A stretch of 64,000 nucleotides of DNA from a virus (IMGVR_UViG_3300021364_000018:1260-65259); one strand, 5' to 3'; counted from the first letter of the stretch, positions 25,361 to 43,286 are shown. The notes: generated from the sequence alone by a model not told the origin. A program made the numbers and translations.

Positions 25361-25509
25361 CTTGTATAATAGAATAATAAACCACAACCAATTAGAAGAA
25401 GCGCTCCTAAAAGAGCTGAGATGATTCTTTGTCGTCTTATTCTTTTCTCCCTATTAGTTAATTTTGGTGCTCTTCTTGGCGACCAATTTATACCGTGTTT
25501 ATTACCCAT
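25357..25509 (-). CDS. 50-aa membrane protein
   Basis: Manual translation MGNKHGINWSPRRAPKLTNREKRIRRQRIISALLGALLLIGCGLLFYYTR; coupled to rpsU by TAATG. Confidence 0.55.
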   Translation of the reverse strand: MGNKHGINWSPRRAPKLTNREKRIRRQRIISALLGALLLIGCGLLFYYTR

Positions 25510-25739
25510 TATCTACGATAACCTTTCATCATTGCTCGTTTAGCATTGAGTTTTTTCTGGCGTTTGATTTCTTGGTTTCTTTGATTACGAGTATCATTAG
25601 GTTTCTCAAAATACTGCCTGTCTCTACACTCTTTAACAATACCTTTTTTATCACACGCTTTCTTAAATCTTCTTAACATTCTATCGAATGGTTCGACATT
25701 TTTAGTTTTCGGATTTATTCTTGGTTTTACCTGAGTCAT
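25509..25739 (-). CDS. rpsU: Phage-encoded 30S ribosomal protein bS21
   Basis: EPFDRMLRRFKKAC.K.GIVKE.R.RQYFEKP...R matches the bS21 signature. Confidence 0.9.
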   Translation of the reverse strand: MTQVKPRINPKTKNVEPFDRMLRRFKKACDKKGIVKECRDRQYFEKPNDTRNQRNQEIKRQKKLNAKRAMMKGYRR

Positions 25740-25786
25740 GTTTATATTATATTAAAAAAGTGTTGTTATTGTATAGTGGTTTTTTA

Positions 25787-25950
25787 AAAAAAGATGTGTA
25801 GTCGCCCCAGCACTTTACAGCAACCCGCTCTACACCAATTGATTCCGCATCTATACTAATCAATTTTTCCCCTACTGAGTTCCCCCTATTCCACGGTCTC
25901 AGTTCTGTAGTCGCATTCACGGACACATGATTAATCACGACTACACCCAA
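25787..25950 (-). ncRNA. Candidate structured RNA (four hairpins plus U-tract) between gp32 and rpsU
   Basis: GC-rich intergenic segment with inverted repeats TGTAGTCG/CGACTACA, ACTGAG/CTCAGT, AATTGATT/AATCAATT and GTGTAG/CTACAC, followed by T6. Confidence 0.6.
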
Positions 25951-25958
25951 TATAGAAG

Positions 25959-26858
25959 TTAGTCGTTTGCTAACTTCTTAAAGTAATCCATCGCTTCGTC
26001 TTCACTTGAATCACCTACTGATGAAGATTCTGCTGATGCGATTACAGGTTCTTCTGCCACTGTTTCAGTGTTTACATTTGACCAAGGCACTTCTTCTAGG
26101 TCTTCTGCAACTGATTCAGCAGTAGAGTTTGATACACCTGTTGTCCCTAACACTCTATCGAGTTTCTCTTTCAGTTCGTCATAAGACTTGAACTGGTCTG
26201 GTGAGATGATAGAGGATAATGGACTCAGTGAAGTATATATATCATTTAACTGATTTTCATCAGTAAATAATGGTGCTGGTGAATCAAATTCTGATTTATC
26301 GTAGTTCCAGTAACCATCGACTTTTCTGATTTTGATTTTAAAGTTAGCACCTTCTTCTCTGAGGTCAAAAGGGTTGATAGCACTCTCATCTTCAAATGCT
26401 GGTGAGATTGCCTCTTTCAACATTTCAAAGATTTTCTTACCATAACGGTATTGAAATACTTTCCCTTCATTATCAGGATTTTTAGGGTCTGAAACAACAT
26501 AGATGTTAGACACATAATGAAGTCTACGCTTCTGCTTACGAGCCTGTTCTCTGTTTGCTTCGATATTAGTGTTCCACAACTGAGTGTTGTATTCACTAAC
26601 AGGGTCTTTTTTACCAATGGTAGTCAAAGACTTTTCGATATACCAACCACCTGGGCCTTGAAAGCCATGGTCGAAGTAAGATACCCATGGCATCTCTTCG
26701 TTCTCTGGTGTTGGGAGGAATCTGATAATTGCGTAACCGTTACCTGATTTATCAAGTTCTGGTTTCCAGAAATTATCATCTGAGTAGGATTTTTTTGCAC
26801 CTTGTTCAGGTGAAGCAGATTCCATAGCTGCTCTTAGTTTATCTAATGATGTCGACAT
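25959..26858 (-). CDS. gp32: Single-stranded DNA-binding protein gp32
   Basis: WKPELDKSGNGYAIIRFLP, HGFQGPGGWYIEKSLTT, YGKKIF, NYDKSEF, acidic tail DYFKKLA. Confidence 0.97.
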   Translation of the reverse strand: MSTSLDKLRAAMESASPEQGAKKSYSDDNFWKPELDKSGNGYAIIRFLPTPENEEMPWVSYFDHGFQGPGGWYIEKSLTTIGKKDPVSEYNTQLWNTNIEANREQARKQKRRLHYVSNIYVVSDPKNPDNEGKVFQYRYGKKIFEMLKEAISPAFEDESAINPFDLREEGANFKIKIRKVDGYWNYDKSEFDSPAPLFTDENQLNDIYTSLSPLSSIISPDQFKSYDELKEKLDRVLGTTGVSNSTAESVAEDLEEVPWSNVNTETVAEEPVIASAESSSVGDSSEDEAMDYFKKLAND

Positions 26859-26886
26859 TGTATTCTCCTATTGTATCGCATTGTAT
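26857..26886 (-). promoter_or_regulatory. Putative gp32 translational operator (3 x ATACAAT around the SD/AUG)
   Basis: AATACAAT-GCG-ATACAAT-AGGAG-AATACAATG. Confidence 0.5.
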
Positions 26887-26923
26887 TAGCATTTTATGTA
26901 AAGGTATTGGGATGGCGTCTACT

Positions 26924-27721
26924 TTAGATTTGACTCTGAAAGCAAGCTTCAATCAATACCCACTCGTCTTCGATATTAAGATTTTCAGTCTTGTATCTAT
27001 TGAGTATATCATTATACTCAATTTTATCGAATCCGTCTACCGAGTTTTTAAAATAAACATTGGCATTCGGATGATTCTCTTCTATCCATTGTAATAGAGA
27101 TAGAAACTGCAACTTTTGACGGTCGCCCACTTCGGAATCAGAAGTGTATTCGTCTTTATATGTATGACAAACAGTAGAGTCATAGATGTTATCTACAACA
27201 TCAAACTCTAATGTATCAAACCCTATAAGACAAATTTCTGTTTCTCCATGTTCTAAAGCATAACCTAATGCTTTTAGACCACAGAGTAAATTCTTAAACT
27301 CATCTTTTTTATATATAACTATGTTATCTTGATGAACAGAGCTATAAGCTGTAAAGTAATGAACCAGGTCATCTTTACCTTTGAAGTTTTCACTATTAAC
27401 TACAAACTTATCATCGCCAGGTTTTCTGACATCAAAGTAAGTAAATACCACATGTGGATTTGCAACTTTCATACCTTCGTGCAACATGTTCCATGATTCT
27501 TCGTCTTCATCTAAATCAATCGAATCAAAAGTCTCACCAACATACATTCTGATTTGTTTATAGACTTCTTCATCAATAGCATGTGACATAGTTGCAACAT
27601 CATTTACGAATAACATTTCTGGCATCGCATCTCTATAAACCATATTCATACCCCACCATCTTTCGAGAGTGGATAAATCGTAGTTATTTCTTGATGGTCC
27701 GTTTCCTACTATGTAGAGCAT
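26924..27721 (-). CDS. Rossmann-like GNGPS protein (DUF115/MptE- or glycosyltransferase-like)
   Basis: IVGNGPSR ... G.N..YRD ... EICLIGFD. Confidence 0.55.
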   Translation of the reverse strand: MLYIVGNGPSRNNYDLSTLERWWGMNMVYRDAMPEMLFVNDVATMSHAIDEEVYKQIRMYVGETFDSIDLDEDEESWNMLHEGMKVANPHVVFTYFDVRKPGDDKFVVNSENFKGKDDLVHYFTAYSSVHQDNIVIYKKDEFKNLLCGLKALGYALEHGETEICLIGFDTLEFDVVDNIYDSTVCHTYKDEYTSDSEVGDRQKLQFLSLLQWIEENHPNANVYFKNSVDGFDKIEYNDILNRYKTENLNIEDEWVLIEACFQSQI

Positions 27722-28302
27722 AATTGTATTAACTTCTTTTTAAACTTGTTATAGTCATAATTAATAAATGACTTATACTTATTTATCTTGTTTATAACCT
27801 CCGGATAAATTAAATTATCACTTATGAGATTATCCCATTTCTTTTGGCATTGTGTTATCTCACATAACATTACCATTGTTTCAATTGATATCTTCTTACC
27901 CATAAACTGTTTAAGAAGATAAGGGTGTTGTCCGTCTTTGACTGTTAACACCTCTTGTATCGATTTCTTCTTTAGAAGATTACTAACTTCATTCTCAAAT
28001 AGATAAGTTAGTTTTTGATTTCTTTTCTTCCAATCGATAAAAGTTTTCTTCGCCTCGTTTTCAATCATGTCACCAACCCACATATCTTTTGTGCATAGAT
28101 TAGCGACATAGAAATCTTTTAACTCTTCTTTATATAGTCGTGCCAATTTAGCGAAGTGAAATCTATCATTTCGTTTGAGAAAGGAAGATAGTTCTGCTTT
28201 GACTTTACCATTGTATTGATTAAAGTCATAGTCCCTAGAATGAAAATGTAATTTTATTCCAAGATACAGTTTATAACTATCAAATCCTTCTCTACTACTC
28301 AC
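27709..28302 (-). CDS. gp59: Helicase loader gp59
   Basis: Y..YL..K.HF...YDF..Y.GK, F.KR.D..F.KL, ISIET. Confidence 0.9.
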   Translation of the reverse strand: MSSREGFDSYKLYLGIKLHFHSRDYDFNQYNGKVKAELSSFLKRNDRFHFAKLARLYKEELKDFYVANLCTKDMWVGDMIENEAKKTFIDWKKRNQKLTYLFENEVSNLLKKKSIQEVLTVKDGQHPYLLKQFMGKKISIETMVMLCEITQCQKKWDNLISDNLIYPEVINKINKYKSFINYDYNKFKKKLIQLCST

Positions 28303-28591
28303 CGCCTACAATGACCTTCTTTTTCTTAGGCACAACTAAGGCACCTGTAGCAGTTCTCCATGCTTCTTCTATTTGGTCGTTAGTTGGAACAACTAAAGAT
28401 ACTGTATAGAATCTTGCTTCTTTTGGATTCTCTTCACCTGTCATTGCGACACCTCTTGCGAAACCCATTTTGCCTTCTGGCGCTTGAACAATCATTCTAG
28501 GGTTTTCTAATATCAGAGGTTCTTCACTTTTCATTTTACCAATGAACTCTCCGTTCATTGTGACTACGCTTACTATATCACCTTTCTTCAT
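28295..28591 (-). CDS. Hypothetical protein, possible Sm-like beta fold
   Basis: GDIVSVV..NGEFIGK....L.L.NPR pattern. Confidence 0.5.
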   Translation of the reverse strand: MKKGDIVSVVTMNGEFIGKMKSEEPLILENPRMIVQAPEGKMGFARGVAMTGEENPKEARFYTVSLVVPTNDQIEEAWRTATGALVVPKKKKVIVGGE

Positions 28592-28830
28592 TTCGACTCC
28601 GTATAAAAAGATGTGAGAGATGCTCTACTAGACTTCTCAACATTAATTAATTTTAACTTCTCTGCCTCAGCAGTAAGTTTTTCTTTTAAAGGTGGAGAAA
28701 GAAGTCTTTTTGCACCTTCTGGTTCTACACCATTCACTTCACAAACTTTGAGTATAGCACTCATTACATCTGTTTTGTTTCCTACTAATAGTCTTTCGAC
28801 TTGTTCTGTAAATTCTTTTCTAGTTATCAT
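28588..28830 (-). CDS. gp33: Late transcription coactivator gp33
   Basis: F...VE...AIL..CE...EPE...L.S.PLKEKL..EA..L.LI; neighbours gp59. Confidence 0.9.
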   Translation of the reverse strand: MITRKEFTEQVERLLVGNKTDVMSAILKVCEVNGVEPEGAKRLLSPPLKEKLTAEAEKLKLINVEKSSRASLTSFYTESK

Positions 28831-29177
28831 ATCAAATTTATTGGAGCGTGTTGAACTTCCTCACCATTATCAAAGTTTTCAATCCAATCCATCATGACTC
28901 TATAGTATGCATAGTATGTTGGACTATGACCATTCATATCCATACCTTCACCACCGTCAGCATAAGGAGTTTCTAAGTAATCAATAAGTGCTTGACATTC
29001 GTCTAAGTGAACTTCGGTAAGTTCGTCTTCACTTCCTATTTCAAGATACTCTAACATATTGTCATATGCAGTATCGTATGCTTGTTGATGAATCCAATCA
29101 TCTGATTTATGAAATATCTTACCCCAATTCCAATCTTGTTTTAGAGTAAACTTCTCTTCGTTATAAAAATCTGCCAT
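28827..29177 (-). CDS. Hypothetical protein
   Basis: Acidic ORF coupled to its neighbours. Confidence 0.65.
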   Translation of the reverse strand: MADFYNEEKFTLKQDWNWGKIFHKSDDWIHQQAYDTAYDNMLEYLEIGSEDELTEVHLDECQALIDYLETPYADGGEGMDMNGHSPTYYAYYRVMMDWIENFDNGEEVQHAPINLI

Positions 29178-29614
29178 TAGAATATCTCCTTATCTGTTTC
29201 TTCTACTACAATTGGACCATAGAATAGATATTCACAATCTATTGAATCATACCCATTGTCAAAGAAATAACTTGTACCTTCTTCATAGAGAGTTTCTTCT
29301 AATACTTCTCTCTCTTCATCGGTGCCTTTCCATTCTAATATTTCAGAATCGAATGAACAACCATCCCAACATTCCTGAAACTCTTGTTCTTCAAAAACTT
29401 GTGGTTCAAACCAATCAGTGTCTTCCTGATTCATTGCATCTGTTAACCATTCAACTTCATCTTCATTCATTGGTTTGATTAACCATTCACCGTTTCGCCA
29501 CATTGTCTCTGTTTTAATTCTATTGCCTGATTCATCAGTCCAATATTCTAATTCATAGACACTCTTCTTATTAGCACATGATATTTCATATGTCTTTCCA
29601 ATCTCAATATTCAT
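29177..29614 (-). CDS. Hypothetical protein
   Basis: Acidic ORF with SD AGGAG. Confidence 0.7.
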   Translation of the reverse strand: MNIEIGKTYEISCANKKSVYELEYWTDESGNRIKTETMWRNGEWLIKPMNEDEVEWLTDAMNQEDTDWFEPQVFEEQEFQECWDGCSFDSEILEWKGTDEEREVLEETLYEEGTSYFFDNGYDSIDCEYLFYGPIVVEETDKEIF

Positions 29615-29623
29615 AATATACTC

Positions 29624-30226
29624 CTATTTAAACTCTCGTTCTCTAAACCACAAATTGAATGCATACTTCTCTCCTTCAAGCACAGGCAAACCTGCATGTT
29701 TAGAAAAGGGGTCTCTCTTATTTGTGTCTGGTAAAACATTATGCCAGAATATCATTGTGCCTTTTCTAGGTTGCACTTCGATACCTAACAAATTAAAACC
29801 TGTTCCGCCACCTTTGGGCACATCTCTTAGATAACCTAAAGCAGTAATCATTCTTTGACCGCCTCTATCTAAGTAGATTGAATTGAAATCTTCATCTTCT
29901 TCATCAAAGGTGTCATAGTGATAATCATACATTTCACCTTCGCTATAATAAACTACTTGAAAAGGTTCAGCATGACTTAAAGGTATTCTAACAGTGTCAG
30001 CAATCTTCTGACCGATTCTCTCTATTTCAGGTGATACATTATGATACACCCATGTATGTGAACCTGTGCGACCTTCTGTAAGTTGACCTTTGCCGTCTTT
30101 ACTTGATACTGTTGCTTTCTCTAAATCTTGCCATGACCATCTTAAAATTTCATCGCATTCTTCGTCTGTTAGAAAGTCATGTATTACTGATAGCATGACT
30201 CTATCATTCTTCATTACATTTATCAT
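29624..30226 (-). CDS. 2OG-Fe(II) oxygenase, prolyl 4-hydroxylase-like
   Basis: FLT.EEC, EPFQVVYY, HYD, R..T.L.YL.DV..GG.T.F, HAGLPV..GEKY..N.W. Confidence 0.9.
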   Translation of the reverse strand: MINVMKNDRVMLSVIHDFLTDEECDEILRWSWQDLEKATVSSKDGKGQLTEGRTGSHTWVYHNVSPEIERIGQKIADTVRIPLSHAEPFQVVYYSEGEMYDYHYDTFDEEDEDFNSIYLDRGGQRMITALGYLRDVPKGGGTGFNLLGIEVQPRKGTMIFWHNVLPDTNKRDPFSKHAGLPVLEGEKYAFNLWFREREFK

Positions 30227-30903
30227 ACGCCGTATAAGTTTTTGTATTGTTTTCTAAGTTGCACTAGTTCTTCTATATGTTCACTAGGGTCACTAATGAA
30301 TAATTGAAATGTATTCATGCCTTCAACGCCAACTATTGCAACAACTTCATCGATTGCAACACCTGTAAGTTCTTCGACCATGATAGCATATGCAGTCATT
30401 TGTATGAACCATGGTGTCGCCATGTAATCATCTTTTGGTTTACCTGATGATTTAAAATCTATGATTGCAAGTTGGTCTTCAAATAGTCCGACACAATCAA
30501 CTCGACCTGCCATTTTTAATTCATGTGAATATAGAGGTGCTTCTAGAGCGATTGGTGTGATACCATCTAAGACAGGTTGAACTGCTTTGAACATACCTTC
30601 TTGTAGTATGTTATCAAACTCAATGTATTCTTTTTCTTGTCTTAGATAGTCTTCTATGTGTTGATGAAACTTTGTGCCTCTATTCGTTGCTTGTTTAGTA
30701 ATCTTGTTTGCAGTCTCTTCTCCGACTCGTTGACGCCAGAGTTTAATTTGTTCTTTTGCTCTTAGACCAACAACTGTCGTAACACTTGGATACTTAGCAT
30801 CGTTTTCGCCAACATAAAATCTTTGACCGTTCTCTGAGATAGTTTCTAATTGTATAGATTCTAAGTCACCAAGTTCATACAGTTTTGTTTTCAATTTTGT
30901 CAT
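30223..30903 (-). CDS. PD-(D/E)XK exonuclease (T4-like exonuclease A / Cas4-like family)
   Basis: YPSVTTV, RGT.FH...E, E..LYS..L..AGRVDC, IIDFKSS, Q..AYA. Confidence 0.85.
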   Translation of the reverse strand: MTKLKTKLYELGDLESIQLETISENGQRFYVGENDAKYPSVTTVVGLRAKEQIKLWRQRVGEETANKITKQATNRGTKFHQHIEDYLRQEKEYIEFDNILQEGMFKAVQPVLDGITPIALEAPLYSHELKMAGRVDCVGLFEDQLAIIDFKSSGKPKDDYMATPWFIQMTAYAIMVEELTGVAIDEVVAIVGVEGMNTFQLFISDPSEHIEELVQLRKQYKNLYGV

Positions 30904-30914
30904 AATGTATTATA

Positions 30915-31211
30915 CTACTTATTTCTTTGTTTGTGAATATGTTTTTTAACAACCTCTTTGGTCTTAATATCTTTGATTGATTTGTTTGTGTTCAATGGTG
31001 AACCTGGATGTCCTTCACCAATCTTAGATAAGACTTCTTTAAACCCACTATCAGTTTTAATTCTATCACCATGACCACCCACGATATTAGGGGCGCCAAT
31101 GATTTCTTTTACCTGTGGATTCTTTTTAAGATACTTGACTTTGTTATCATAAGACATCATAAGTTCGTATCTCTCATCTAACTCTGAGTTATAAAATTCG
31201 TAAAGGGGCAT
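30915..31211 (-). CDS. FmdB-like small protein (Cys ligands absent)
   Basis: MPLYEF start and GFKEVLSKI...HPGS motif common in T4-like phages. Confidence 0.6.
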   Translation of the reverse strand: MPLYEFYNSELDERYELMMSYDNKVKYLKKNPQVKEIIGAPNIVGGHGDRIKTDSGFKEVLSKIGEGHPGSPLNTNKSIKDIKTKEVVKKHIHKQRNK

Positions 31212-31384
31212 TAAGTTCTCGGTAAGTTTTGTTCAACGATATCAAGCACATCTTGTTCTTTATACCAAAGACCAGAATAGACTTGTTTGTGACCGTCATT
31301 CCATTCTACATGATATCTTTTATAACCAAAAGGTCTATCACTAAAGACTCTACAATCGCCGTAATTTTTTATTAATATTCTCAT
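31211..31384 (-). CDS. 57-aa hypothetical protein
   Basis: Manual translation MRILIKNYGDCRVFSDRPFGYKRYHVEW...; fills the gap and overlaps both neighbours. Confidence 0.6.
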   Translation of the reverse strand: MRILIKNYGDCRVFSDRPFGYKRYHVEWNDGHKQVYSGLWYKEQDVLDIVEQNLPRT

Positions 31385-31917
31385 AACATAAATGCAGGTG
31401 TATCTCGTTTAGTCCACACTGCGAAGTCTCTCTTATATTTATTGTAATATTGTTGATACGCTTTTACTACATCACTTGACTTGACATCATCTGGCATTGC
31501 AGGTGGTGGGGGTGAAAACGGACCTGGTGTAATATTATTTGGTGTTTCACATAGAACATTTCTAAGTTTTGAATCTGTTAGATGTTCTCTGCCATATCTG
31601 AAAGTATACTCATCACAAAGATGAACAAACAACTCATACAAGAATTCATAGTTGCCTGATGTTTGTCTTGCCCATACAGCAGTAGGGTGATTCAGGTGTG
31701 ACGCCTTGTATAAAGTGTTTTCTAAGTTAGAGTTTGGCATACGCCATCTTTTGATTCGTCTACCGTTTTTAGATAACGCCTCGTATTGGTCGCCATCTAA
31801 CATACGATGTGCTGTAGACATCAACTGAGCATACTCAATAATCATTTTAACAACATGCTTATCACAATGTAATTCAGCACATGGTTTGGGTTCTTCGTGT
31901 AAGTAAAATAAATTCAT
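31381..31917 (-). CDS. Pyrimidine-dimer DNA glycosylase / endonuclease V-like family protein
   Basis: MNLFYL...CA..HCDKHVVKMI.E.AQL.STAH, YK..H.NHP...W, EYT.RYG..H. Confidence 0.8.
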   Translation of the reverse strand: MNLFYLHEEPKPCAELHCDKHVVKMIIEYAQLMSTAHRMLDGDQYEALSKNGRRIKRWRMPNSNLENTLYKASHLNHPTAVWARQTSGNYEFLYELFVHLCDEYTFRYGREHLTDSKLRNVLCETPNNITPGPFSPPPPAMPDDVKSSDVVKAYQQYYNKYKRDFAVWTKRDTPAFML

Positions 31918-31961
31918 AGTTCTAGTATATCATAAATTAAGTTCATTGAGAACCTGTTTTG

Positions 31962-32492
31962 TCATTTGTAAAATATGTGGTCGTTAATAACTACAGTCTC
32001 ATTCAATGAATCATTCCAATATGGGTCGACATACAAAGTATGATAATGTGTTGCACCTTCTGTAATATCAGGATACTTACCCATAATCACATCTTGAGCA
32101 ATCACATATGATTCAAAGAATGTATCAGTGTCTAAAGGTTCATCTGACTTGCCATCACAGAACCAACTGAACTGACATTGATTACGAATTGGTACCATGT
32201 TGCCTTTCCAGTTCTCTCTATACTTTGCTTGATAAATTACTCCACATATATCTTTTGGATATGCGGAATGTTCCATACGATTTAGAACAACCTGTGCGAC
32301 AGCAACTTTACCTGCAAGAGGTTGATTACCTGCCTCAAAGTAAATGTTCTTCGCCATACAAACTACCTCACCATTTTCATCAGCAGCATTGACTGTTTGT
32401 GGTAACATCATAACGAACATTAAAAAGGCACCGAAACCCATGCCATATAAGAATGCTTTGAAAGCATCTTTCTCTGTATGTTTATGTTGCAT
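31962..32492 (-). CDS. Cell wall hydrolase (SleB/Hydrolase_2) with N-terminal TM anchor
   Basis: C.A.NIYFEA, AVAQV..NR, CQFSW.CDG, GATHYH, H.FY; probable start MQHKH at 32492. Confidence 0.9.
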   Translation of the reverse strand: MQHKHTEKDAFKAFLYGMGFGAFLMFVMMLPQTVNAADENGEVVCMAKNIYFEAGNQPLAGKVAVAQVVLNRMEHSAYPKDICGVIYQAKYRENWKGNMVPIRNQCQFSWFCDGKSDEPLDTDTFFESYVIAQDVIMGKYPDITEGATHYHTLYVDPYWNDSLNETVVINDHIFYK

Positions 32493-32493
32493 A

Positions 32494-33106: not shown

Positions 33107-33107
33107 A

Positions 33108-36128: not shown

Positions 36129-36137
36129 TATATTAAT

Positions 36138-36228
36138 ACTCCATGGAGTCGGACTCTGCTAGAAAGTTTACACATAGGAAAGTGTATAACCTTTCCCTTT
36201 TATTATGTATAGCATCTGCCGACAATAA
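36138..36228 (-). promoter_or_regulatory. Structured 5' leader downstream of a late promoter
   Basis: Nested stems GTCGG/CCGAC, TGCTA/TAGCA, GAAAG/CTTTC, TACAC/GTGTA; ACTC-CATG-GAGT covers the SD. Confidence 0.55.
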
Positions 36229-36235
36229 TATTTAT

Positions 36236-36751
36236 CTAAAATTGAGCATCAGGAAACGCTTTTTGTGCAATTTCTTTACTCAGGTTTTTGAATGGATTTA
36301 CCTTGTCTTTAACAAGTTCCATAAGTTCTGCCTCTTTGGCAGGTATACTTTCTAACATTTCAATCCACATTGTCTCTCTACGAGTCTTAGGGATTTGTTC
36401 TGTCACAAAGTATTTAAACTTTCTAAATTCAAATCTTAATGCTGATTCAGTTAAATCACTTGCTGGTGCATCATTAGATTTATAAGGTGTTTTACCTGCA
36501 GGCAAGGTTGATTTAATGTGGTCACTAAACAACCATTGCAATACAGATTGAACTGCACCGTTGTTTTTATTAAATGCTTGTAGACCATTTACTGCATGGT
36601 CTTCATTTTCAGCGGCAACTAATTCTGCTTGGCATAGTATTTCATACACATCAGCATTCTTCATAAGCTTCTCTCGCTTAGTGATTAGTTCCATTTTTGG
36701 TTTATTAGGGGCGCCCTTAGGTCTGCCTCTTCCTCTTTTCTTTTCTGTCAT
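36236..36751 (-). CDS. Conserved T4-like protein with an N-terminal AT-hook-like motif
   Basis: KKRGRGRPKG; LP.G..PY, RE..WI..LE.I...EA. Confidence 0.7.
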   Translation of the reverse strand: MTEKKRGRGRPKGAPNKPKMELITKREKLMKNADVYEILCQAELVAAENEDHAVNGLQAFNKNNGAVQSVLQWLFSDHIKSTLPAGKTPYKSNDAPASDLTESALRFEFRKFKYFVTEQIPKTRRETMWIEMLESIPAKEAELMELVKDKVNPFKNLSKEIAQKAFPDAQF

Positions 36752-37584
36752 AACGAAAAATCTCCAATGTTATCTAGTAATTGATTAAGTCGATGAGTTC
36801 TGAGATAGTCGAATACTTTCCCTTTGACTGGTTCTGTTTGAGAATATTCACTGAGAATTGCATCTTCTATTTTTTCAGGTATCATATCTAGGTCAATCAA
36901 GTTTTGATTTCTTAAATAATTACGATAGTATTTATCATCATTTTCAATACTAATCCTGAGATATTTTTCTAATACAGGTTTTCTCAAAGGTGTTTGTCTG
37001 ATACCCAAATCTAAACAATCATCATTAGATAAGATATTAGGTATGCCATCTGACTTATCACCTTTTAGAATATGCTCTTTCAAAAACATATCTGGTTCAT
37101 CACAATCAACAAACTTATTTAGATTAGGTGACCATTGTTTCACATAGTCATACTTCTGTAATTGTTGAAAGTCTTTATCACCAGACACAATCAATACTGA
37201 TTCTTTTGAGTGTTTAGTTAACACTGCAATGATATCATCTGCTTCACAATTCTCAACATACATGTATCTGTATGGGAAGTTCTCTTTGATTTCCATTTTA
37301 ACTTCATGTAATGTATCAAAGATTAACTGCCAATCTTTATCATCTGCCTCTCTACTCTTTTTACGATTCGCCTTATATAAGGGAAAGAAATCTTTACGCC
37401 ATGGGTTTGATGCATCGGTGCATAATACCATCTCGCCGTAATCAGAAGCATATCTCTTCTGATAGTTTCTGAGTGAGTTAAGAATCATATGTCTTAACAT
37501 GTTCTCGTTTATTTCGCCATCGTTTGATTTGATTTGTGCCATCAGACCAGCGATAACAGTTTGAGTAAAGTCAATTAATATCAT
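36748..37584 (-). CDS. rnh: T4-like RNase H / 5'-3' exonuclease
   Basis: ILIDF.Q, WRK..FP.YKA.RK, EADDIIA, SGDKDF.QL, GD.SDGIPN. Confidence 0.95.
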   Translation of the reverse strand: MILIDFTQTVIAGLMAQIKSNDGEINENMLRHMILNSLRNYQKRYASDYGEMVLCTDASNPWRKDFFPLYKANRKKSREADDKDWQLIFDTLHEVKMEIKENFPYRYMYVENCEADDIIAVLTKHSKESVLIVSGDKDFQQLQKYDYVKQWSPNLNKFVDCDEPDMFLKEHILKGDKSDGIPNILSNDDCLDLGIRQTPLRKPVLEKYLRISIENDDKYYRNYLRNQNLIDLDMIPEKIEDAILSEYSQTEPVKGKVFDYLRTHRLNQLLDNIGDFSL

Positions 37585-37617
37585 GCGACCAGTATAACAG
37601 AAAATGTATGTTATTGT

Positions 37618-38049
37618 CTAGTGAGTTTTTCTACCCTTAGTTTCTTCAATAATCTTCATTCGTTTTTCTCTTGCTTTTCTCATCTTAGTATTCAATCTTT
37701 TCATGGCAGTCTCTTGGTCCCATTTTGCCTGATTCTTCTGAATGTAGATATCGCAACCTTCGATTATTGATTCAATAAATTTTATAAACTTTTTCTTTTG
37801 AGGTTTAGTCATGTAATTATAACCCTCGATTAAATCCGGGTCATCTGATGTGAGTTCTTCGAGTAGAGGTTTATATTCTTCTCTACACATATCGACTAAC
37901 TTAGGTTTGAATTCAATCTGACCCAAGTATTTGTCCATTTTAAAATTTGATTTGTAATTATTAGATAAGAACTTATCTATTTGGTGCTCGACTTCCCCCA
38001 ACGCATGGTTGACTTTCTTTCGCATCGCTTCTTTAATTGGGTTCGCCAT
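37618..38049 (-). CDS. Hypothetical protein
   Basis: ORF with DPDL.EGY motif. Confidence 0.65.
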   Translation of the reverse strand: MANPIKEAMRKKVNHALGEVEHQIDKFLSNNYKSNFKMDKYLGQIEFKPKLVDMCREEYKPLLEELTSDDPDLIEGYNYMTKPQKKKFIKFIESIIEGCDIYIQKNQAKWDQETAMKRLNTKMRKAREKRMKIIEETKGRKTH

Positions 38050-38055
38050 ATCATT

Positions 38056-38760
38056 TTAGTATACCAGGTTTACATTCCCTGCTACACTTATCCTAATTTT
38101 ACCTTCTTCATAAAATGAATAAACTGTATGCCTTAACCAACTAGGGAACATTATAATATCACCTCTACTTGGTACATGGTTGAAGAGTTGCCAGTTAAAG
38201 AAGTTTGCCTCACCGTATGACAATTCAATCATACCTGCAATTGCTCTTTGGTCGATACCGCCTTTAGAACGATTATCGTATTCATTATCCTGTATCTCTT
38301 CTACAGTCATATTCTCTAAATCATTTCGGGTATATATAACAAACGAGAACGCACCGTCATGTTGATGAGGTGGATTGAACTCTCTTGCCTCTTGTATGTT
38401 TGACCAAAGCGAAGTCAATTCATACATGTTATATGTGTTAGGTTGATTCTTTGTCTGTTCGATAGGCGACATTCCTTCTGTAAAACTTGTAGTAATACCT
38501 GTCATTTGATTTACAGTATTATGATAGTGTGCTACATGTTCTAGCATATGATTTCTGCAATCTTTAGAGATGACATCAATCAGATGTGTTTGTTTTTTAA
38601 TACGACCTGCAAGTTGACCACTAGCATCGAATTCAGGTTTGCCACCGTTCTCTTCGATACGAGCATCTAACTCTTCAATACATTCTTCTGCAACCTTATT
38701 AATATAGACTGGCGGCCCAAAAGGAAATACTACAGGATTATATTCTTCATTCTGATTCAT
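38056..38760 (-). CDS. Putative 2OG-Fe(II) oxygenase (TIGR02466-like)
   Basis: W.N.Q...EFNPPHQH.G.FSFV.Y, FPSWL.H.V, RISVAGN. Confidence 0.8.
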   Translation of the reverse strand: MNQNEEYNPVVFPFGPPVYINKVAEECIEELDARIEENGGKPEFDASGQLAGRIKKQTHLIDVISKDCRNHMLEHVAHYHNTVNQMTGITTSFTEGMSPIEQTKNQPNTYNMYELTSLWSNIQEAREFNPPHQHDGAFSFVIYTRNDLENMTVEEIQDNEYDNRSKGGIDQRAIAGMIELSYGEANFFNWQLFNHVPSRGDIIMFPSWLRHTVYSFYEEGKIRISVAGNVNLVY

Positions 38761-39085
38761 TGTGTAACCTCACAAAATATTCGGCATCAATTACGACTAA
38801 GGGTTTCTTACGATTCTTTTTTATTACTACAAGAGGTTCGTACCCTTTACAGTTTGATTCTGCCTGTTCGTATGCCGACCATACATTAACTTTCTCTTGA
38901 TTCTTACATTCTACACTATAAGGGAAGACCTGTCTAGATTGTTTTCCCATTATGATATCTTCACCACTAGACCCCATTGGTCTAGATTCTAAATCTTCTT
39001 CGTCTAAGTGTAGATGTTCAATTAACTTTTGCACAACCCATTTCTGTAGATTGCGACCTTTTGCTTTCGCACTTGATGTTTTCAT
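38747..39085 (-). CDS. Holliday-junction-resolvase-like PD-(D/E)XK nuclease
   Basis: SAKAKGR.LQ, MG..GEDI, SVECKNQE. Confidence 0.7.
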   Translation of the reverse strand: MKTSSAKAKGRNLQKWVVQKLIEHLHLDEEDLESRPMGSSGEDIIMGKQSRQVFPYSVECKNQEKVNVWSAYEQAESNCKGYEPLVVIKKNRKKPLVVIDAEYFVRLHNESE

Positions 39086-39086
39086 A

Positions 39087-39467
39087 TTATAATTCTACTG
39101 CAAATATTTTACTTTTATCGACCTCGACTTGTTCTAAATCAAAATTAATACTGACACCACAACCACATGAATCTTTTTCTTTAGGGTTGTGAAACTTGAA
39201 TACTTCGTTTAAACCTTCTTTCACAAAATCGAGTGTCATTCCATTTATATATGGTACACTGATTTTATTTACTACGAATTTTAATTGACCGAAGTCTATG
39301 ATGATGTCATCTGACTCAGCAACATCGCTAGAGTCAAACACATATTCAAAACCAGCACAACCACCACCAGTAATACCCAGCCTAATATAATTGAATTTCT
39401 CTTTCTCTTTTTTTCTAAGTAATTCAACAATCGCTTCATCGGTTATATCAATTAAATTGTCCATCAA
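39087..39467 (-). CDS. iscA: Fe-S cluster assembly A-type carrier (IscA/HesB)
   Basis: GGGCAGFEY, NP....CGCGVS. Confidence 0.9.
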   Translation of the reverse strand: MMDNLIDITDEAIVELLRKKEKEKFNYIRLGITGGGCAGFEYVFDSSDVAESDDIIIDFGQLKFVVNKISVPYINGMTLDFVKEGLNEVFKFHNPKEKDSCGCGVSINFDLEQVEVDKSKIFAVEL

Positions 39468-39471
39468 TTAT

Positions 39472-40125
39472 TTATGAAGGTGGTAAAGGTTTATCGTCTC
39501 CATCTGTTGAAGTTGCAGGTTTAAATCCTGGAATATATTTTGTTTTATCTCGTATACAATCGTAAGGGACATGAATCTCTTGGTCTTCTGGAATATATAA
39601 ATGATTAATCATAGAACGATTACAGGTGTCAATGGCATCATAGACTGTTTCACATATTGCTTCGCCACCTAGATTAAATGATGTATTAAATAATATTGGT
39701 ACACCTGTTCTCTCATAAAAACCTTTAATGAGATTATAATAATTTTTATTCTGTTCTTCGGTCACTGTTTGAATTCGACAAGTGTTGTCGGCATGAACAA
39801 GTGTAGGAATATCTTTGAGTGCCTTAGGTTTACACTGAATGGCAAACGACATCCAAGGCGATTCAGGTAATTGCAACATGTCAAAGTATTCTTCTGCATG
39901 TTCTAACATAACAGTGCAAGCAAATGGTCGATAGGACTCTCTCTTCTTTACATCATTGACAATTGCTTTGGCATTGTGATGTCTAGGGTCAAATAATATA
40001 GAACGATTACCTAGAGCACGAGGACCCCATTCAGAATGATTCTGAAAGATTGCGACAATCTGTTCGTTGTCAATAATTTCATCAAGAATTGAATCTTGGT
40101 CTCTATGAATATTAGTTGTTAGCAT
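39472..40125 (-). CDS. Carbamoyltransferase C-terminal domain (NodU/CmcH family)
   Basis: EWGPRALGNRSIL.DP, KKRE.YRPFA, H.DNTCRIQTV, NTSFNLGGE. Confidence 0.92.
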   Translation of the reverse strand: MLTTNIHRDQDSILDEIIDNEQIVAIFQNHSEWGPRALGNRSILFDPRHHNAKAIVNDVKKRESYRPFACTVMLEHAEEYFDMLQLPESPWMSFAIQCKPKALKDIPTLVHADNTCRIQTVTEEQNKNYYNLIKGFYERTGVPILFNTSFNLGGEAICETVYDAIDTCNRSMINHLYIPEDQEIHVPYDCIRDKTKYIPGFKPATSTDGDDKPLPPS

Positions 40126-41287
40126 GATTTCTCCAATAATCTAAAGCGACACCAACCGCAGTGCCACCGTCATGTGGGATAGGGTCAACAAAAAATTGCA
40201 CATCAGGAAATGCCTGTAGATACTTATAGTTGTTGGTGCAGTTCAATGAATACCCACCTGAGAGAACTACATTCTTACAATCAGGTACCATATCAAGTGC
40301 CTTCTGTATGATTTCTTTACTATGTTCAAGAGCAGCAAGTTCAAGTCTTTGTGCTTCTGTATGTTTAGTAAAGACTTTCGGATGGGCGCCACCATATGAT
40401 GCCATACCCATAACTTTACCTGACGCTCTTCCCATTTTATCACACCCTAATGCATAAGACATTTGTGAGAAGTTCATACCCATTGAAGGCATTGATGTCA
40501 GGACGACTGGCACACCATCTCTCTCATAGACTTCATCTGTATAACACATAAAGGCATCTTCACCAAATGCATCTAAATCAAAATGCATTGAGTGAGAGAA
40601 TCTCTGATTTGATAATCTTTTCCAAATAGGTGTGACTTGTTTGTCTTTGTAATGCCAAATGGTTTCAATTTCTTGATACATAGGGAACTCATCAAAGTAA
40701 GTTTGTGCTCCCCCACCGTCCCAGGCGATAACAATTGCCTCATCGTAAGGTGATAAATGCGACCCACAGACAGCATGATAATAATGATGGTGACGAATAT
40801 CAAAATGATAATTCTCAACTTCTACTTGTCTTGCAATTGCCTGATTAATGTGGTCGTCTTCGTCAACAAAGGTATGATTATCATCAAACACACTATCACC
40901 AAAGGCCTTTCTTATCTCTTCGATTCGTTTAAGAGTAAGTTGTGCTGATGAAAACTCCTGAGTTAATTCTTTTTGTAAGAGTCTATCTTTGTAAACTCTA
41001 TCTTTAAACTTGACTTGAAAATCTCTACGGTCAAACGAGGCTAACGCCAGAGCGCTAGGTTTGTGTAACTGTTTGTGGTCTATTGCCAGTAAGGCAAAAT
41101 TTTGATAGGAGTCAAGACCTTCGTTCTCATGGGTATCAAACCCAGCATCGTCAATCGGTGAGAAATGTTTTTGTCTACGGCATCGTTCTTCTTCGTAAAC
41201 ATTTAAAACTTCACCTGATTTCCTATCAATACATGCGACTGATGTATCGTGTGATTGGTTCACGCCCAATATAATATTGTCATTCAT
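40112..41287 (-). CDS. Carbamoyltransferase N-terminal (Kae1-like) domain
   Basis: ILG...SHD, EEER..R.K, HH..HA, DGGG, GKVMGMASYG, SGG..LNC..N, D.G.A.G. Confidence 0.9.
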   Translation of the reverse strand: MNDNIILGVNQSHDTSVACIDRKSGEVLNVYEEERCRRQKHFSPIDDAGFDTHENEGLDSYQNFALLAIDHKQLHKPSALALASFDRRDFQVKFKDRVYKDRLLQKELTQEFSSAQLTLKRIEEIRKAFGDSVFDDNHTFVDEDDHINQAIARQVEVENYHFDIRHHHYYHAVCGSHLSPYDEAIVIAWDGGGAQTYFDEFPMYQEIETIWHYKDKQVTPIWKRLSNQRFSHSMHFDLDAFGEDAFMCYTDEVYERDGVPVVLTSMPSMGMNFSQMSYALGCDKMGRASGKVMGMASYGGAHPKVFTKHTEAQRLELAALEHSKEIIQKALDMVPDCKNVVLSGGYSLNCTNNYKYLQAFPDVQFFVDPIPHDGGTAVGVALDYWRNHANN

Positions 41288-41310
41288 AATAATCCTGAAT
41301 TGTAAAATAC

Positions 41311-41487
41311 TTATTTAGTAATATTTTTATAGTTATCAATTAATTGTTTTGAGGTTACCAGACCTCTATCGAGTAAATCGTATAATAAATCAGACTGACC
41401 TGTTCTGGCACCGACATAATAACCGTACCAATACGACCCACCGGCACATACTGAAATAAAAATGATGTGTATTAAATATAAATCCAT
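41311..41487 (-). CDS. 58-aa membrane protein
   Basis: Manual translation MDLYLIHIIFISVCAGGSYWYGYYVG...; SD GAGG. Confidence 0.55.
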   Translation of the reverse strand: MDLYLIHIIFISVCAGGSYWYGYYVGARTGQSDLLYDLLDRGLVTSKQLIDNYKNITK

Positions 41488-41649
41488 TTATTTGTCCTCG
41501 TTGTATTTATTGCGAACAATAGGACTACGAAAAGAAATATAATTACCAGTTAAAACTGCGTAGATACCTCCAACGAGAGTAATCCAGAACATGAGAGTGA
41601 ACCCATACTTAAAGATGGAAAAGGGTAACATAAAAATTTCATATAACAT
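41488..41649 (-). CDS. Small membrane protein
   Basis: Start MLYEIF after SD AGGAG; hydrophobic core. Confidence 0.55.
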   Translation of the reverse strand: MLYEIFMLPFSIFKYGFTLMFWITLVGGIYAVLTGNYISFRSPIVRNKYNEDK

Positions 41650-41665
41650 AGCGTCTCCTATAAAC

Positions 41666-41760
41666 CTGGCAGGGAGGGATTGCACACATCAATCGTATAA
41701 TGCTTGTGGATTTTGTGATATTTAATCCCTTTATCCCTTGCCCGAGCTCATTCGCCCCTA
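41666..41760 (-). ncRNA. Candidate structured RNA or leader
   Basis: GGCA-AGGGA-TAA-AGGGATT pairs with AATCCCT-CCC-TGCC; 5' GGGC/GCTC mini-hairpin; promoter TTGTCG-17-TATACT at 41780-41808. Confidence 0.45.
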
Positions 41761-41810
41761 TTATTTAAAATCAACTACCAGTATACACTGGTCTGCGACA
41801 TACGACAACC

Positions 41811-41927
41811 CTATTCCCAAGGTAATTTGTGGTATTTACCGCTTTTGCTTTCACCATAACAGTGTGCTGAACCCCATGCGAAGACACCTGCAACGCAAAG
41901 GGCAATGATTTGTGTAAATATTTCCAT
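41811..41927 (-). CDS. 38-aa membrane peptide
   Basis: Manual translation MEIFTQIIALCVAGVFAWGSAHCYGESKSGKYHKLPWE; SD AGGAG. Confidence 0.45.
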   Translation of the reverse strand: MEIFTQIIALCVAGVFAWGSAHCYGESKSGKYHKLPWE

Positions 41928-42155
41928 TCAAATCTCCTTTTTCCGACTAAAATAACGCCTTATAGTATACACCCTTACATAAGCGACCACTGTCATCCAT
42001 GCGGTGACTGTAGTCCCAATGTGTAAAGTGTTCGTCATACCCCATAAATCTATGCAAATAAACAATCCGAGTAGATTTAAAGGGTAATTTATCAGTAGAC
42101 CAGTGAAGACTGTAGTAAAAGTCTCTTTGTGCCTCTGTCTAACCTCTTGATTCAT
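41928..42155 (-). CDS. Small two-TM membrane protein
   Basis: E....V..G..I...N ... R.Y.IRR.F pattern. Confidence 0.65.
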   Translation of the reverse strand: MNQEVRQRHKETFTTVFTGLLINYPLNLLGLFICIDLWGMTNTLHIGTTVTAWMTVVAYVRVYTIRRYFSRKKEI

Positions 42156-42421
42156 GCAAAACCATACCTCCGTGCATAGTATTTTAAGTCTAAGATGTTA
42201 TTCTCAGGAGTGTAAGACTCCTTATCCATCTCATAAACAGGGTCTCCTTCATCATCATCACCATAATAGACTGATAATACGAGTTGACCGTCTCTGTCCT
42301 CAATATAAAAGAGTGTATCTTCTTCTATACCGTGGGTTTCGAGAAACACCTCTGCATCTAATTCATCATCAAAGTGTATCTCATCGTCAATTACCTCAAA
42401 ATTATAACCGACATATCGCAT
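42152..42421 (-). CDS. Acidic hypothetical protein
   Basis: ORF with SD AAGGA. Confidence 0.6.
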   Translation of the reverse strand: MRYVGYNFEVIDDEIHFDDELDAEVFLETHGIEEDTLFYIEDRDGQLVLSVYYGDDDEGDPVYEMDKESYTPENNILDLKYYARRYGFA

Positions 42422-42548
42422 TTTTGGTTTCCTTCTTCGTTTTTCCCAAAAAAAATTTTAATAAGGGTACCGGTCAGAAAAACAACCCGATGCCTTAACA
42501 TCAGTGGACCAAGGGCAACACAATCGCTGGGACTGTTCCTAAGCGATT

Positions 42549-42728
42549 CTACTGCACCCGAGTGACTTCGACTACACACTCCTTCGATTCTAACTCTGAG
42601 GCGACTTCCATCGCTTCTCTCATAGGTATCGGAGTCGTATTATAGACCTGCCATACTCTGTCACCACTAATGTGTTTGATATTCTTATGGAAGTACCTCA
42701 CAGTGGCATTCATGTTGTCTACTGTCAT
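42549..42728 (-). CDS. 59-aa hypothetical protein
   Basis: Manual translation MTVDNMNATVRYFHKNIKHISGDRVWQVYNTTPIPMREAMEVASELESKECVVEVTRVQ; SD AAGGA. Confidence 0.5.
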   Translation of the reverse strand: MTVDNMNATVRYFHKNIKHISGDRVWQVYNTTPIPMREAMEVASELESKECVVEVTRVQ

Positions 42729-42742
42729 ATGTATCCTTATAC

Positions 42743-42864
42743 TATATGCTGTAGTGGGCGGGGCAACCTCCTCCCCGCCATGGATGTTCGGACATCAACC
42801 TCTGGGACTTTCACATATGCATGATATATTACAGGTAACTCCCAGATGAACCCTACAACATATA
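42743..42864 (-). ncRNA. Candidate ~120-nt four-way-junction RNA
   Basis: Closing stem TATATGTTGTAG/CTACAGCATATA; arms TCTGGGA/TCCCAGA, GATGT/ACATC, GGCGGGG/CCCCGCC; promoter TAGACA-18-TATAAT at 42868-42897. Confidence 0.7.
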
Positions 42865-42894
42865 ACCATTATACTATGGTAATGCAGTCTATGT

Positions 42895-43134
42895 CTAGTG
42901 GAAAACTCGCTCAACACCTCCAATTACTATGAAGTCTATGGCTATCTCACCCTCTATGACTATGCCCTCTCTATGGAAGACACTCGCACACATGAGTGAC
43001 CAGCATTCATTGATGTTTTCCTTAACCATTGCCAGTTGCATCTCCTTACTATTAAGGGGTATGTCTACTGGTATATTGGATGCGATATGCACCCCTCGTA
43101 ATCCGTTAATCATGTTATTTCCTTTTCTCATCAT
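42895..43134 (-). CDS. Hypothetical early protein
   Basis: ORF directly behind tandem sigma70 promoters. Confidence 0.6.
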   Translation of the reverse strand: MMRKGNNMINGLRGVHIASNIPVDIPLNSKEMQLAMVKENINECWSLMCASVFHREGIVIEGEIAIDFIVIGGVERVFH

Positions 43135-43138
43135 GGTA

Positions 43139-43286
43139 ATGGTAACAAAAAATGGAGGTCACTGTCAACCCCTCTATGGCGCTACGAATCACCTGCATAA
43201 CCCTCCATGGTATCATATATGGGGGTCATATGTCAAATCCTCAGAGGGTCTCAAAAGGTTGACATCTCTCGAATTATACATATACT
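43139..43286. promoter_or_regulatory. Cluster of divergent sigma70-type promoters
   Basis: (-) TTGACA-18-TACCAT at 43139-68 and 43207-36; (+) TTGACA-16-TATACT at 43259-86. Confidence 0.65.

Follow-up and report, generated by a model that had tools for sequence, protein, structure and literature searches.

Separable expression features around a bS21 gene and a conserved structured RNA in a marine T4-like phage contig

We analysed 64,000 bases (the window) of the 65,259-base IMG/VR viral contig IMGVR_UViG_3300021364_000018, which encodes ribosomal protein bS21 beside a structured RNA, here called RNA-1, and carries a second structured RNA (RNA-2) and many promoter motifs lying directly against start codons. 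A preliminary description had joined bS21, an early RNA displaying the Shine-Dalgarno (SD) sequence AGGAGGU and leaderless mRNAs into one translation-takeover system. Our analysis favours, with a probability of roughly 0.6 for all its parts jointly, several real and separable expression features over one demonstrated system; two of these parts are apparently new. Most likely, a known kind of gene, the phage bS21, occurs here in a new context, in which an RNA at the 3' end of gene 32 would gate bS21 expression and many leaderless messages stand beside SD-led ones. RNA-1 is a well-defined new RNA family tied physically to bS21 and gene 32 in a phage lineage abundant in the ocean, and promoters abutting start codons are a sequence signature that separates the bS21-bearing T4-like phages compared here from their bS21-less relatives.

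The phage bS21 gene

The bS21 gene (rpsU; 25509-25739, minus strand) encodes a protein of 76 amino acids that matches Pfam family PF01165 at 48.3 bits (cut-off 27; E = 8.2e-13), and at 47.4 bits in a six-frame search. It is also matched by 27 distinct bS21 sequences of the PDB, the best of which (E = 2.3e-12) pairs query residues 11-65 with chain residues 5-60. These scores confirm the earlier statement that the phage carries its own bS21 and, by sequence, 25509-25739 is a true bS21 of a kind already known from phages. All 160 database relatives lie on contigs from metagenomes or viruses, which reach about 150-217 kb, and a single cluster of them accounts for 438 contigs. To our knowledge, bS21 is the commonest ribosomal protein gene in viruses.

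Judged by its gene content, the window (36% GC; CheckV completeness of the contig 35%) is part of an uncultured marine T4-like myovirus. Matches to PHROG families identify T4-type proteins, namely a gp32-like single-stranded DNA-binding protein, a baseplate hub, a tape-measure/lysin-like protein, NrdA and NrdB, as well as a primase, exonucleases, a gp2-like end protector and a baseplate wedge. The lineage is regarded as uncultured because its gp32 is only 50-53% identical to that of the Pelagibacter phages Mosig and HTVC008M, the Methylophilales phage Melnitz and cyanomyophages, and because 20 kb of the region gave no nucleotide match among 50,697 deposited phage records. No tRNA or transfer-messenger RNA (tmRNA) was found in the window with ARAGORN.

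The pelagimyophages HTVC008M and Mosig are likewise T4-like marine myoviruses with a small basic PF01165 protein. The window bS21 is only 36-38% identical to their S21 (tblastn E 0.04-0.1), and neither orthology nor a shared locus was found: the gene follows gene 32 in the window, whereas in HTVC008M it follows cobS and a tRNA, and RNA-1 is absent there. S21 is counted as a core gene of pelagimyophages (Zaragoza-Solas et al. 2020, PMC7029224; here and below, published work is represented by excerpts), and the HTVC008M protein gets into E. coli 70S ribosomes (Mizuno et al. 2019, PMC6375957). The window bS21 may join host 30S subunits as the HTVC008M protein does. As to function, the excerpted literature says only that phage bS21 'may replace the host protein and favour phage mRNAs'; PMC9723584 puts forward a substitution hypothesis, its excerpts giving no hit for the term 'leaderless'. 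Within the literature searched, supplements lying outside its scope, no source links a phage bS21 with leaderless mRNAs or describes RNA-1.

Directly upstream of the window bS21 lies a predicted sigma70-type promoter (TATACA-18-TATAAT; 25746-25775, minus strand) whose -10 box ends 6 nt before the ATG, a leaderless-type geometry, and no SD precedes this ATG. Nearly all variants among the relatives lack an SD as well. Of the 78 relatives that could be assessed, 22 have the leaderless-type promoter, and their -35 boxes (TTGACA or TAGACA) are better than that of the window; these promoters read (CAC)TAGACA or TTGACA, an 18-nt spacer, then TATAAT or TATACT. Automatic scoring covered 19 of these loci, 16 of which have 6 nt between the -10 box and the ATG and three of which have 8 nt. 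The bS21 of the other 56 relatives is not of this type. The earlier proposal that bS21 is itself on a leaderless mRNA therefore fits the geometry of the window gene (TATAAT plus 6 nt, no SD) but extends to only 22 of 78 relatives, and both RNA-1 and this promoter are lineage or sub-lineage features.

Promoters abutting start codons

Among the 76 ATG-start genes of the window, -10-like hexamers peak at a spacer of 6 nt (four genes; eight at spacers 5-8) and the T4 late core TAAATA at 5 nt (four genes; seven at spacers 5-7), against backgrounds per offset of about 0.6 and 0.1, respectively (binomial P = 6e-5 for the TAAATA peak). The window has 24 strong -35/-10 matches, four of which are followed by an ATG at 5-6 nt; at three of the four this ATG begins an open reading frame (ORF) of 169-278 aa, and the fourth match starts RNA-2. 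The sigma70-type abutting genes are those of replication and recombination (exonucleases, primase, a RusA-like protein, deoxyribonucleotidase), and the late-type ones include the baseplate wedge and gp2. Spacings of this size are those to be expected if transcription starts at the A of the ATG, as it would for leaderless messages. The boxes stand 5-7 nt from the ATG of about 15 of the 76 genes, bS21 among them, and from this geometry we infer that a sizeable minority of the phage mRNAs are probably leaderless, in agreement at sequence level with the earlier claim that many operon heads are.

The sigma70-type cases include an exonuclease gene (30223-30937, minus strand; TTCACA-17-TATAAT ending 5 nt before the ATG), a second exonuclease gene (36748-37620, minus strand; CACTAGACA-18-TATACT ending 6 nt before it), a deoxyribonucleotidase-like gene (50447-50992, minus strand; TTGACA-18-TATAAT ending 6 nt before the ATG at 50956) and the DNA primase gene (56665-57705, minus strand; TATAAT 7 nt before the ATG). 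A longer TTG-start ORF of the deoxyribonucleotidase-like gene begins inside the -35 box. Late-type motifs (ATAAATA) stand 5 nt before the ATG of a baseplate wedge gene (11266-11706, minus strand), and 6 nt before those of the gp2-like DNA end protector gene (20612-21262, plus strand) and a gene of unknown function (60324-60953, minus strand). In the relative G001 (151 kb), the abutting promoter is kept in the orthologues of 8 of 12 window genes. The spacing is the same there for the first exonuclease and the wedge, the deoxyribonucleotidase promoter is kept, primase has TATAAT at 6 nt, gp2 has its motif at 7 nt and the gene of unknown function has CTAAATA at 5 nt; the promoter of the second exonuclease gene is not kept. 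The abutting spacing of wedge (5 nt) and gp2 (5 nt) is found in HTVC008M too, at about 30-35% protein identity. For most orthologue pairs examined, protein homology begins at residue 1, and the sequence of the spacer changes while its length stays.

The boxes near ATGs could alternatively be AT-rich, SD-independent initiation contexts or chance, with the genes being read from longer polycistronic transcripts. The phage is AT-rich, ATT at -3 to -1 is very common, TATATT-type hexamers abut five ATGs and most of the flagged genes lie inside long same-strand arrays; in addition, late-promoter prediction in pelagimyophages 'was unsuccessful' (PMC7029224, whose excerpts also record that no riboswitch was found). 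However, the peaks are sharp, at 5 nt for TAAATA and 6 nt for -10 boxes, and are not spread as AT-richness would give. Full -35/17-18/-10 promoters stand before long ORFs at exactly this spacing, which orthologues keep while its sequence changes, and in T4 and cyanophages TAAATA lies 19-29 nt upstream, as known late promoters do. We thus hold this reading to be unlikely, although it keeps appreciable weight. Promoters that abut start codons may themselves explain why late-promoter prediction failed in the pelagimyophages.

Placement of this kind has precedents. In lambda cI transcribed from PRM (PMC10491246), as in the window, the -10 box is placed for a start at the A of AUG and no SD is present; unlike cI, the window geometry covers many genes, including those with T4-type late promoters, and is known from sequence alone. 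The late promoter of T4 consists of a TATA box of 8 bp that precedes the start site by about one helical turn (PMC2988020). Late promoters of T4 have the same (A/C)TAAATA core, which lies 19-29 nt before ATGs in T4 and cyanophages and so is leadered, whereas the window lineage and the pelagimyophages show a sharp class 5-7 nt from the ATG with no room for a leader. TAAATA 5 nt before an ATG is frequent in pelagimyophages (15 in HTVC008M, 6 in Mosig), as it is in the window phage.

An A/T-rich -3 to -1 context (ATT-ATG) is strongly preferred at window starts, for example at 29614, 43395, 51945 and 61339. The TATATT-type hexamers that directly abut five start codons create a spurious -10-like peak at 'spacer 0', which counts 18 in HTVC008M and 12 in Mosig.

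A conserved structured RNA between gene 32 and bS21

RNA-1 (25786-25957, minus strand; about 170 nt; covariance-model match 154 bits) begins about 10 nt after the stop codon of the SD-led gene 32, which encodes the single-stranded DNA-binding protein (25959-26858, minus strand; phrog_224, E = 4e-105). We aligned the stretch between gene 32 and bS21 from 80 viral loci that encode bS21 relatives (61-96% identity). The alignment describes a four-helix RNA with a variable hairpin P1, a P2 with conserved internal loops, P3, and a P4 with an invariant large loop followed by U7; its invariant unpaired segments are GCCGUGGA..GGGGG, GUAnGGGnAA, GCGG and GCGGGnnUGCUGUAAnGnG..GGGGCGA. RNAalifold returns 26 pairs, 17 of which change on both sides in a compensatory manner, and 98% of cells are paired across 52 distinct sequences. 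The covariation score of 0.568 is attained by none of 500 shuffles (0.166) and drops to at most 0.08 with partners slid, and P1, variable as it is, folds in 28 of 28 sequences. An RNA fold beside bS21 had been noticed before; with 17 of 26 pairs double-changing and a score far above the shuffles, the case is stronger than was claimed. RNA-1 is, on this covariation, a previously undescribed and strongly conserved structured RNA.

The covariance model matches the window and 78 of the 80 bS21 loci; the two misses end 660 and 748 nt upstream of bS21. We also scanned viral contigs with the P4-loop pattern, which listed 80 loci, 17 of them on contigs already among the bS21 loci and so left out. Of the 63 further viral loci picked by the RNA motif alone, 36 carry a full RNA-1 (among the matches listed); gp32 lies immediately 5' in all 36, and bS21 lies 3' in 35, the last being cut 212 nt after the RNA. 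In all, 114 related viral loci have RNA-1, always arranged as gene 32 - RNA - bS21. It gave no blastn match in the 50,697 phage records, and a search of the complete genomes of HTVC008M, Mosig and Melnitz-3 (E up to 1) did not find it.

The 80 bS21 loci fall into three architectures (34 abutting, 22 with a promoter, 22 with an inserted ORF), apart from two cut by contig ends. Where RNA-1 abuts bS21, the ATG is 23-36 nt from the GGGGYKA segment that opens the 3' side of P4, or about 10-25 nt past P4; a short U-run but no promoter lies in between. Twenty-two loci resemble the window, with P4, then U5-7, then the complete sigma70 promoter of bS21. In the remaining 22, a 295-aa DNA-methyltransferase-like ORF (motifs DPFAG and TCPPY, recognised by eye) separates the two; it starts 4 nt after RNA-1 and stops one base before the bS21 ATG (L009 3515-4402 and 21 other loci). 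The U-run after P4 is long (6-7) ahead of a promoter and short (3-4) ahead of a directly adjoining ORF. In the window the covarying stem of P4 has 8 pairs, encloses a loop of about 27 nt and is followed by AUC and U7; it went unlisted in a simple terminator scan. RNA-1 is intact across all three architectures, so what it is constantly tied to is the end of gene 32, whereas its arrangement with bS21 differs among loci.

These observations allow us to propose how RNA-1 might act. Its position suggests that RNA-1 is produced at the 3' end of the abundant mRNA of gene 32, with the last helix and U-run ending or attenuating that transcript and so gating read-through. Read-through past RNA-1 would then set the level that reaches the next cistron, be it bS21 or the inserted methyltransferase. 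In the window sub-lineage, termination would be strong (U7), and bS21 would have gained its own sigma70 promoter with a start at the A of AUG. For the invariant unpaired core, the most likely partner is a protein, either bS21 or gp32, and not the anti-SD.

A second possibility is that RNA-1 is a cis-acting ribosomal-protein leader, bound by bS21 to repress translation of its own or the downstream operon. RNA-1 is always upstream of bS21 on the same strand; the distance is 23-36 nt in 34 of 78 loci, and in 22 the RNA directly precedes the methyltransferase-bS21 pair. Its invariant unpaired G-rich segments are typical of protein-binding sites. Furthermore, bS21 is able to bind a structured non-coding RNA: the OLE RNA-bS21 ribonucleoprotein (PMC12054373) is a precedent for bS21 on a conserved structured RNA outside the ribosome, although OLE is an RNA of ~600 nt from Bacillota with bS21 at a CCUCCU/AGUAGG mimic, and RNA-1 is ~170 nt long, phage-borne and without CCUCC. 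In HTVC008M a tRNA gene (Rfam tRNA, 49.5 bits; L197 2880-2950, KC465899.1 about 91140-91210) ends 17 nt before S21, so that a structured RNA directly precedes bS21 there too. Against a leader role, a putative U-run terminator and a separate promoter stand between RNA-1 and bS21 in the window and 22 loci, where a leaderless-type bS21 message would consequently be without RNA-1. RNA-1 is just as conserved in these promoter-separated loci (154 bits in the window), which argues against a purely cis role. It has no SD-anti-SD-like helix, and the excerpts of a survey of ribosomal-protein leaders (PMC7247131) give no term hits for an S21 leader. Together these data make a cis leader improbable, if still one of the better-placed alternatives.

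We find it less probable again that RNA-1 is a riboswitch, a trans-acting small RNA or a ribozyme whose link to bS21 is merely inherited gene order in one clade. The multi-helix fold with invariant junction nucleotides would suit such a role, a glutamine riboswitch is reported in the related phages Melnitz and Mosig (PMC9004378, which also describes tmRNA there), and all RNA-1 carriers do belong to one clade, with gp32 72-84% identical. Nevertheless, no ligand-related gene is regulated in common, and RNA-1 occurs in none of the 80 cellular loci among the matches listed for the P4-loop pattern (at least 120 chance matches). Neither RNA-1 nor RNA-2 matches an Rfam 15 family at gathering score over the window, and an E-value search up to 10 gave only noise (E of at least 1.5).

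Other readings of the RNA-1 sequence were rejected. It is not an SD/anti-SD mimic or SD sponge, since the J2/3 'AAGGG' varies (CUGGG, AUGGG) and the alignment holds no CCUCC. An alternative pairing of P1 with P4 in the window is not kept in relatives, and the segment UGCUGUAA has no -10 box after it that would make it a MotA box or promoter. A 67-aa TTG ORF spanning RNA-1 was discounted because substitutions in the helices are compensatory. In loci with long P1 hairpins (L034, L040-L043, L048, L061, L077) the conserved loop includes a word resembling TATAAT or TGnTATAAT, with AUGUGUCC after it; it may serve as an internal promoter or be no more than a conserved loop, and short P1 variants are without it.

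Contigs from sequencing libraries cover the locus. All 24 runs that matched did so as contigs, with shares of 0.06-0.23 in 18 metatranscriptomic runs and 0.38-0.44 in six of unknown kind. Four RNA-library runs, from four studies, gave contigs of at least 88% identity that cover gene 32, RNA-1, bS21 and RNA-2. In three runs, word depth in the gene 32 bins is 20-70 as against 0-10 elsewhere, an excess more readily explained by real transcripts than by DNA carry-over. One metatranscriptome contig of 1190 nt (run X7; word depth 46.5) reaches from 25844 to 26981 and has adapter sequence at both ends, and its 3' side ends inside the P3 loop of RNA-1, where an assembly artefact and an abundant fragment look alike. 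Neither the contig breaks near 25819-25823 nor the adapter-flanked end at 25844 was taken as evidence of RNA ends.

bS21 and promoter-abutting starts across genomes

Nine T4-like genomes were put through the same scan for TAAATA before first-ATG ORFs of at least 50 aa. Among those with bS21, the numbers at spacers 4-7 and 8-40 were 8 and 7 in the window contig, 11 and 30 in G001, 15 and 19 in HTVC008M, and 6 and 26 in Mosig. Among those without it, they were 3 and 28 in Melnitz-3, 3 and 30 in P-RSM1, 3 and 31 in P-SSM4, 0 and 35 in S-RIM12, and 0 and 39 in T4. Absence of bS21 was established by Pfam search in P-RSM1, P-SSM4, S-RIM12 and T4, and by tblastn only in Melnitz-3 (best E 3.4). In the bS21-less phages TAAATA peaks at about 19-29 nt, a leadered pattern. 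Pooled, the two spacer classes stand at 40/82 with bS21 and 9/163 without (odds ratio 8.8, Fisher p = 5.6e-10), and a per-genome Mann-Whitney test on the nine genomes gave p = 0.01. The association is suggestive but phylogenetically thin, since the bS21 genomes represent about two lineages.

SD-like motifs precede 36% of window genes, as against 4% at a control position, which excludes a Bacteroidetes-type SD-less host as the cause of missing SDs. An example is a late gene at 8827-9340 (minus strand) with AGGAGGA 7 nt before its ATG; the genes at 9321 and 22040, described earlier as SD-led, do show AGGAGGA and GAGGA. The share of genes with SD-like motifs is highest in T4 (54%), lowest in cyanophages (15-23%) and intermediate (36-46%) in pelagimyophage-like phages and Melnitz. 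For a possible host we used G032, a 1.41-Mb alphaproteobacterial genome (380 kb sampled) picked by the similarity of its bS21 to that of HTVC008M (66% identity, the closest among 401 genomes sampled), not to the window phage. At 33% GC, G032 may be SAR11-like; SD-like motifs precede 16% of its ORFs of at least 100 aa (control 6%), and its -10 boxes show no spacer-6 peak in the 380 kb. Given 36-46% in the phages, these may exceed their presumed hosts in SD dependence. The rpsU of G032 has GAGGU before a TTG start.

In Bacteroidia, bS21 takes part in anti-SD sequestration and rpsU autoregulation (PMC9976891), a case of bS21 as a switch of SD dependence with which the phage bS21, its gene lacking an SD, may be compared. 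Unlike the Bacteroidia, the phage and its relatives use SD for 36-46% of genes, and flavobacterial rpsU has an extended SD (PMC9976891), the opposite of the phage gene. Species rich in leaderless mRNAs tend to be without bS21 (PMC12054373).

In the reading we prefer, that of separable features, many early or middle (sigma70-type) and late (TAAATA-type) promoters would abut start codons beside the SD-led third or so of genes (about 36%), a style common to the window phage and the bS21-bearing pelagimyophages. Several points weigh against it. The per-genome counts above come from a crude ORF caller (first ATG, at least 50 aa), and the four bS21 genomes stand for about two independent lineages, are confounded by host and clade and possibly belong to one host group. 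The abutting promoter is lost in 4 of 12 G001 orthologues (exo_37584, dbp_31917, rusA, nrdB). The P4 loop of 27 nt is unusual for an intrinsic terminator, the function of RNA-1 is inferred from position only, and its abutting bS21 in 34 of 78 loci leaves room for a cis-regulator of bS21. Assembled RNA-library contigs show neither starts, 3' ends or processing sites nor a reliable gene ranking. Finally, bS21 is classically needed for SD-led and not for leaderless initiation, which makes its pairing here with leaderless-type starts puzzling.

A bolder proposal would tie these features together: T4-like phages with bS21 would have moved much of their early and late transcription to leaderless mRNAs while keeping SD-led genes, and bS21, with RNA-1 acting like OLE, would retune host 30S subunits for both in a host that rarely uses SD. 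If true, such retuning would give phage bS21 a mechanistic role; at present we regard it as quite unlikely.

RNA-2 and the AGGAGGU loop

RNA-2 (42729-42866, minus strand) is a 138-nt RNA of three predicted hairpins (fold z = -2.79) behind an early-type promoter, (CCAC)TAGACA-18-TATAAT (42868-42897, minus strand), which agrees with 11 of 12 consensus positions and is kept in L325-L327. Its hairpin GGCGGGG-AGGAGGUUG-CCCCGCC (42757-42779, minus strand) places AGGAGGU (42766-42772) in the loop of a 7-bp GC stem, in this contig only. A protein-based search for relatives of the 41-44 kb region found only two plus two loci. The closest RNA-2 relative (L322 = L327) is 79% identical over 2.6 kb and almost identical over RNA-2, differing there by two compensatory double changes and the loop. 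The stem reads GCGCCGG/GCCGGCGC in L326, GGAGGGG/CCCCUCC in L325 and L327, and GGCGGG/CCCGCC in the partial homologue L324, and the loop is AAUGAAAAC in all four homologues (three of them distinct), so that AGGAGGU occurs in one of five. Display of an SD is consequently not a conserved property of RNA-2. The early RNA with an exposed AGGAGGU, as first described, thus exists in the window, but its loop is probably a contig-specific and incidental variant of the usual AAUGAAAAC.

Both RNA-2 contigs long enough to judge encode bS21, and the two short ones stop before it. RNA-2 was not found by nhmmer (E up to 1) in G001, HTVC008M, Mosig, Melnitz, three cyanophages or T4. The heptamer AGGAGGU is at chance level in the window (3 found vs 4.6 expected). 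As a separate observation, GGAGG is depleted window-wide on both strands (25 found vs 42.8 expected; 100 of 100 shuffles had at least 25).

Very unlikely, in our view, is one takeover system in which the RNA blocks the anti-SD early, leaderless phage messages are favoured and bS21 later restores SD-led structural genes: all three elements are in the window, RNA-2 stands behind a strong early-type promoter, leaderless geometry accompanies bS21 in the nine-genome comparison and bS21 binds an SD/anti-SD mimic in OLE RNA (PMC12054373), but AGGAGGU is confined to one of five homologous loops and is no commoner than chance, RNA-2 is missing from the bS21-carrying G001, HTVC008M and Mosig, bS21 is not leaderless-type in 56 of 78 relatives, and a single loop per transcript would make a poor sponge when ribosomes number in the thousands. 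A scheme that first damps and later retunes host SD translation also fits awkwardly with 36% SD-led genes in the phage as against 16% in G032. The check across related phages that the preliminary description had suggested supports co-occurrence of bS21 with promoter-abutting starts in the nine genomes, while RNA-1 and RNA-2 are absent from HTVC008M and Mosig. This association, suggestive as it is, is the sole cross-genome support for a takeover system, and the comparative part of that model is largely refuted here. What stands of it is bS21, the RNA beside it and abutting starts together with bS21; the SD-loop leg and the presence of RNA-1 in the other bS21 phages compared do not.

Within RNA-2, at 42742-42795 (minus strand), an invariant GAGGU-UG-AUG opens a short ORF, MSEHPWRG... 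for 17 codons in the window and MSEHPWRGMKTP... in relatives. Covariation in the stem alters residues of this ORF, so RNA structure seems to be the constraint, although a small peptide may yet be made. A leaderless mini-ORF, AUG-UUG-UAG, at the start of RNA-2 was rejected as it is not conserved.

Neighbouring features

The extended -35 motif (C)CACTAGACA marks a promoter class that includes those of RNA-2 (42888-42897) and the exonuclease gene (37611-37620), and is also found upstream of bS21 in relatives (L024-L032, L059). Two small basic minus-strand ORFs lie 3' of bS21 (25154-25360 and 25357-25509) and close the minus-strand unit, which converges on tail genes; the second (MSNWHGGKGSKRR...) is kept in relatives (L009) and has no family match. 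A divergent control region (43139-43236, minus strand, and 42930-43060) contains two TTGACA-18-TACCAT sites and many CATAGA/CCATAG repeats. With a GC fraction of about 0.40 it exceeds every other part of the window, and it may be a cluster of early promoters or regulator sites.

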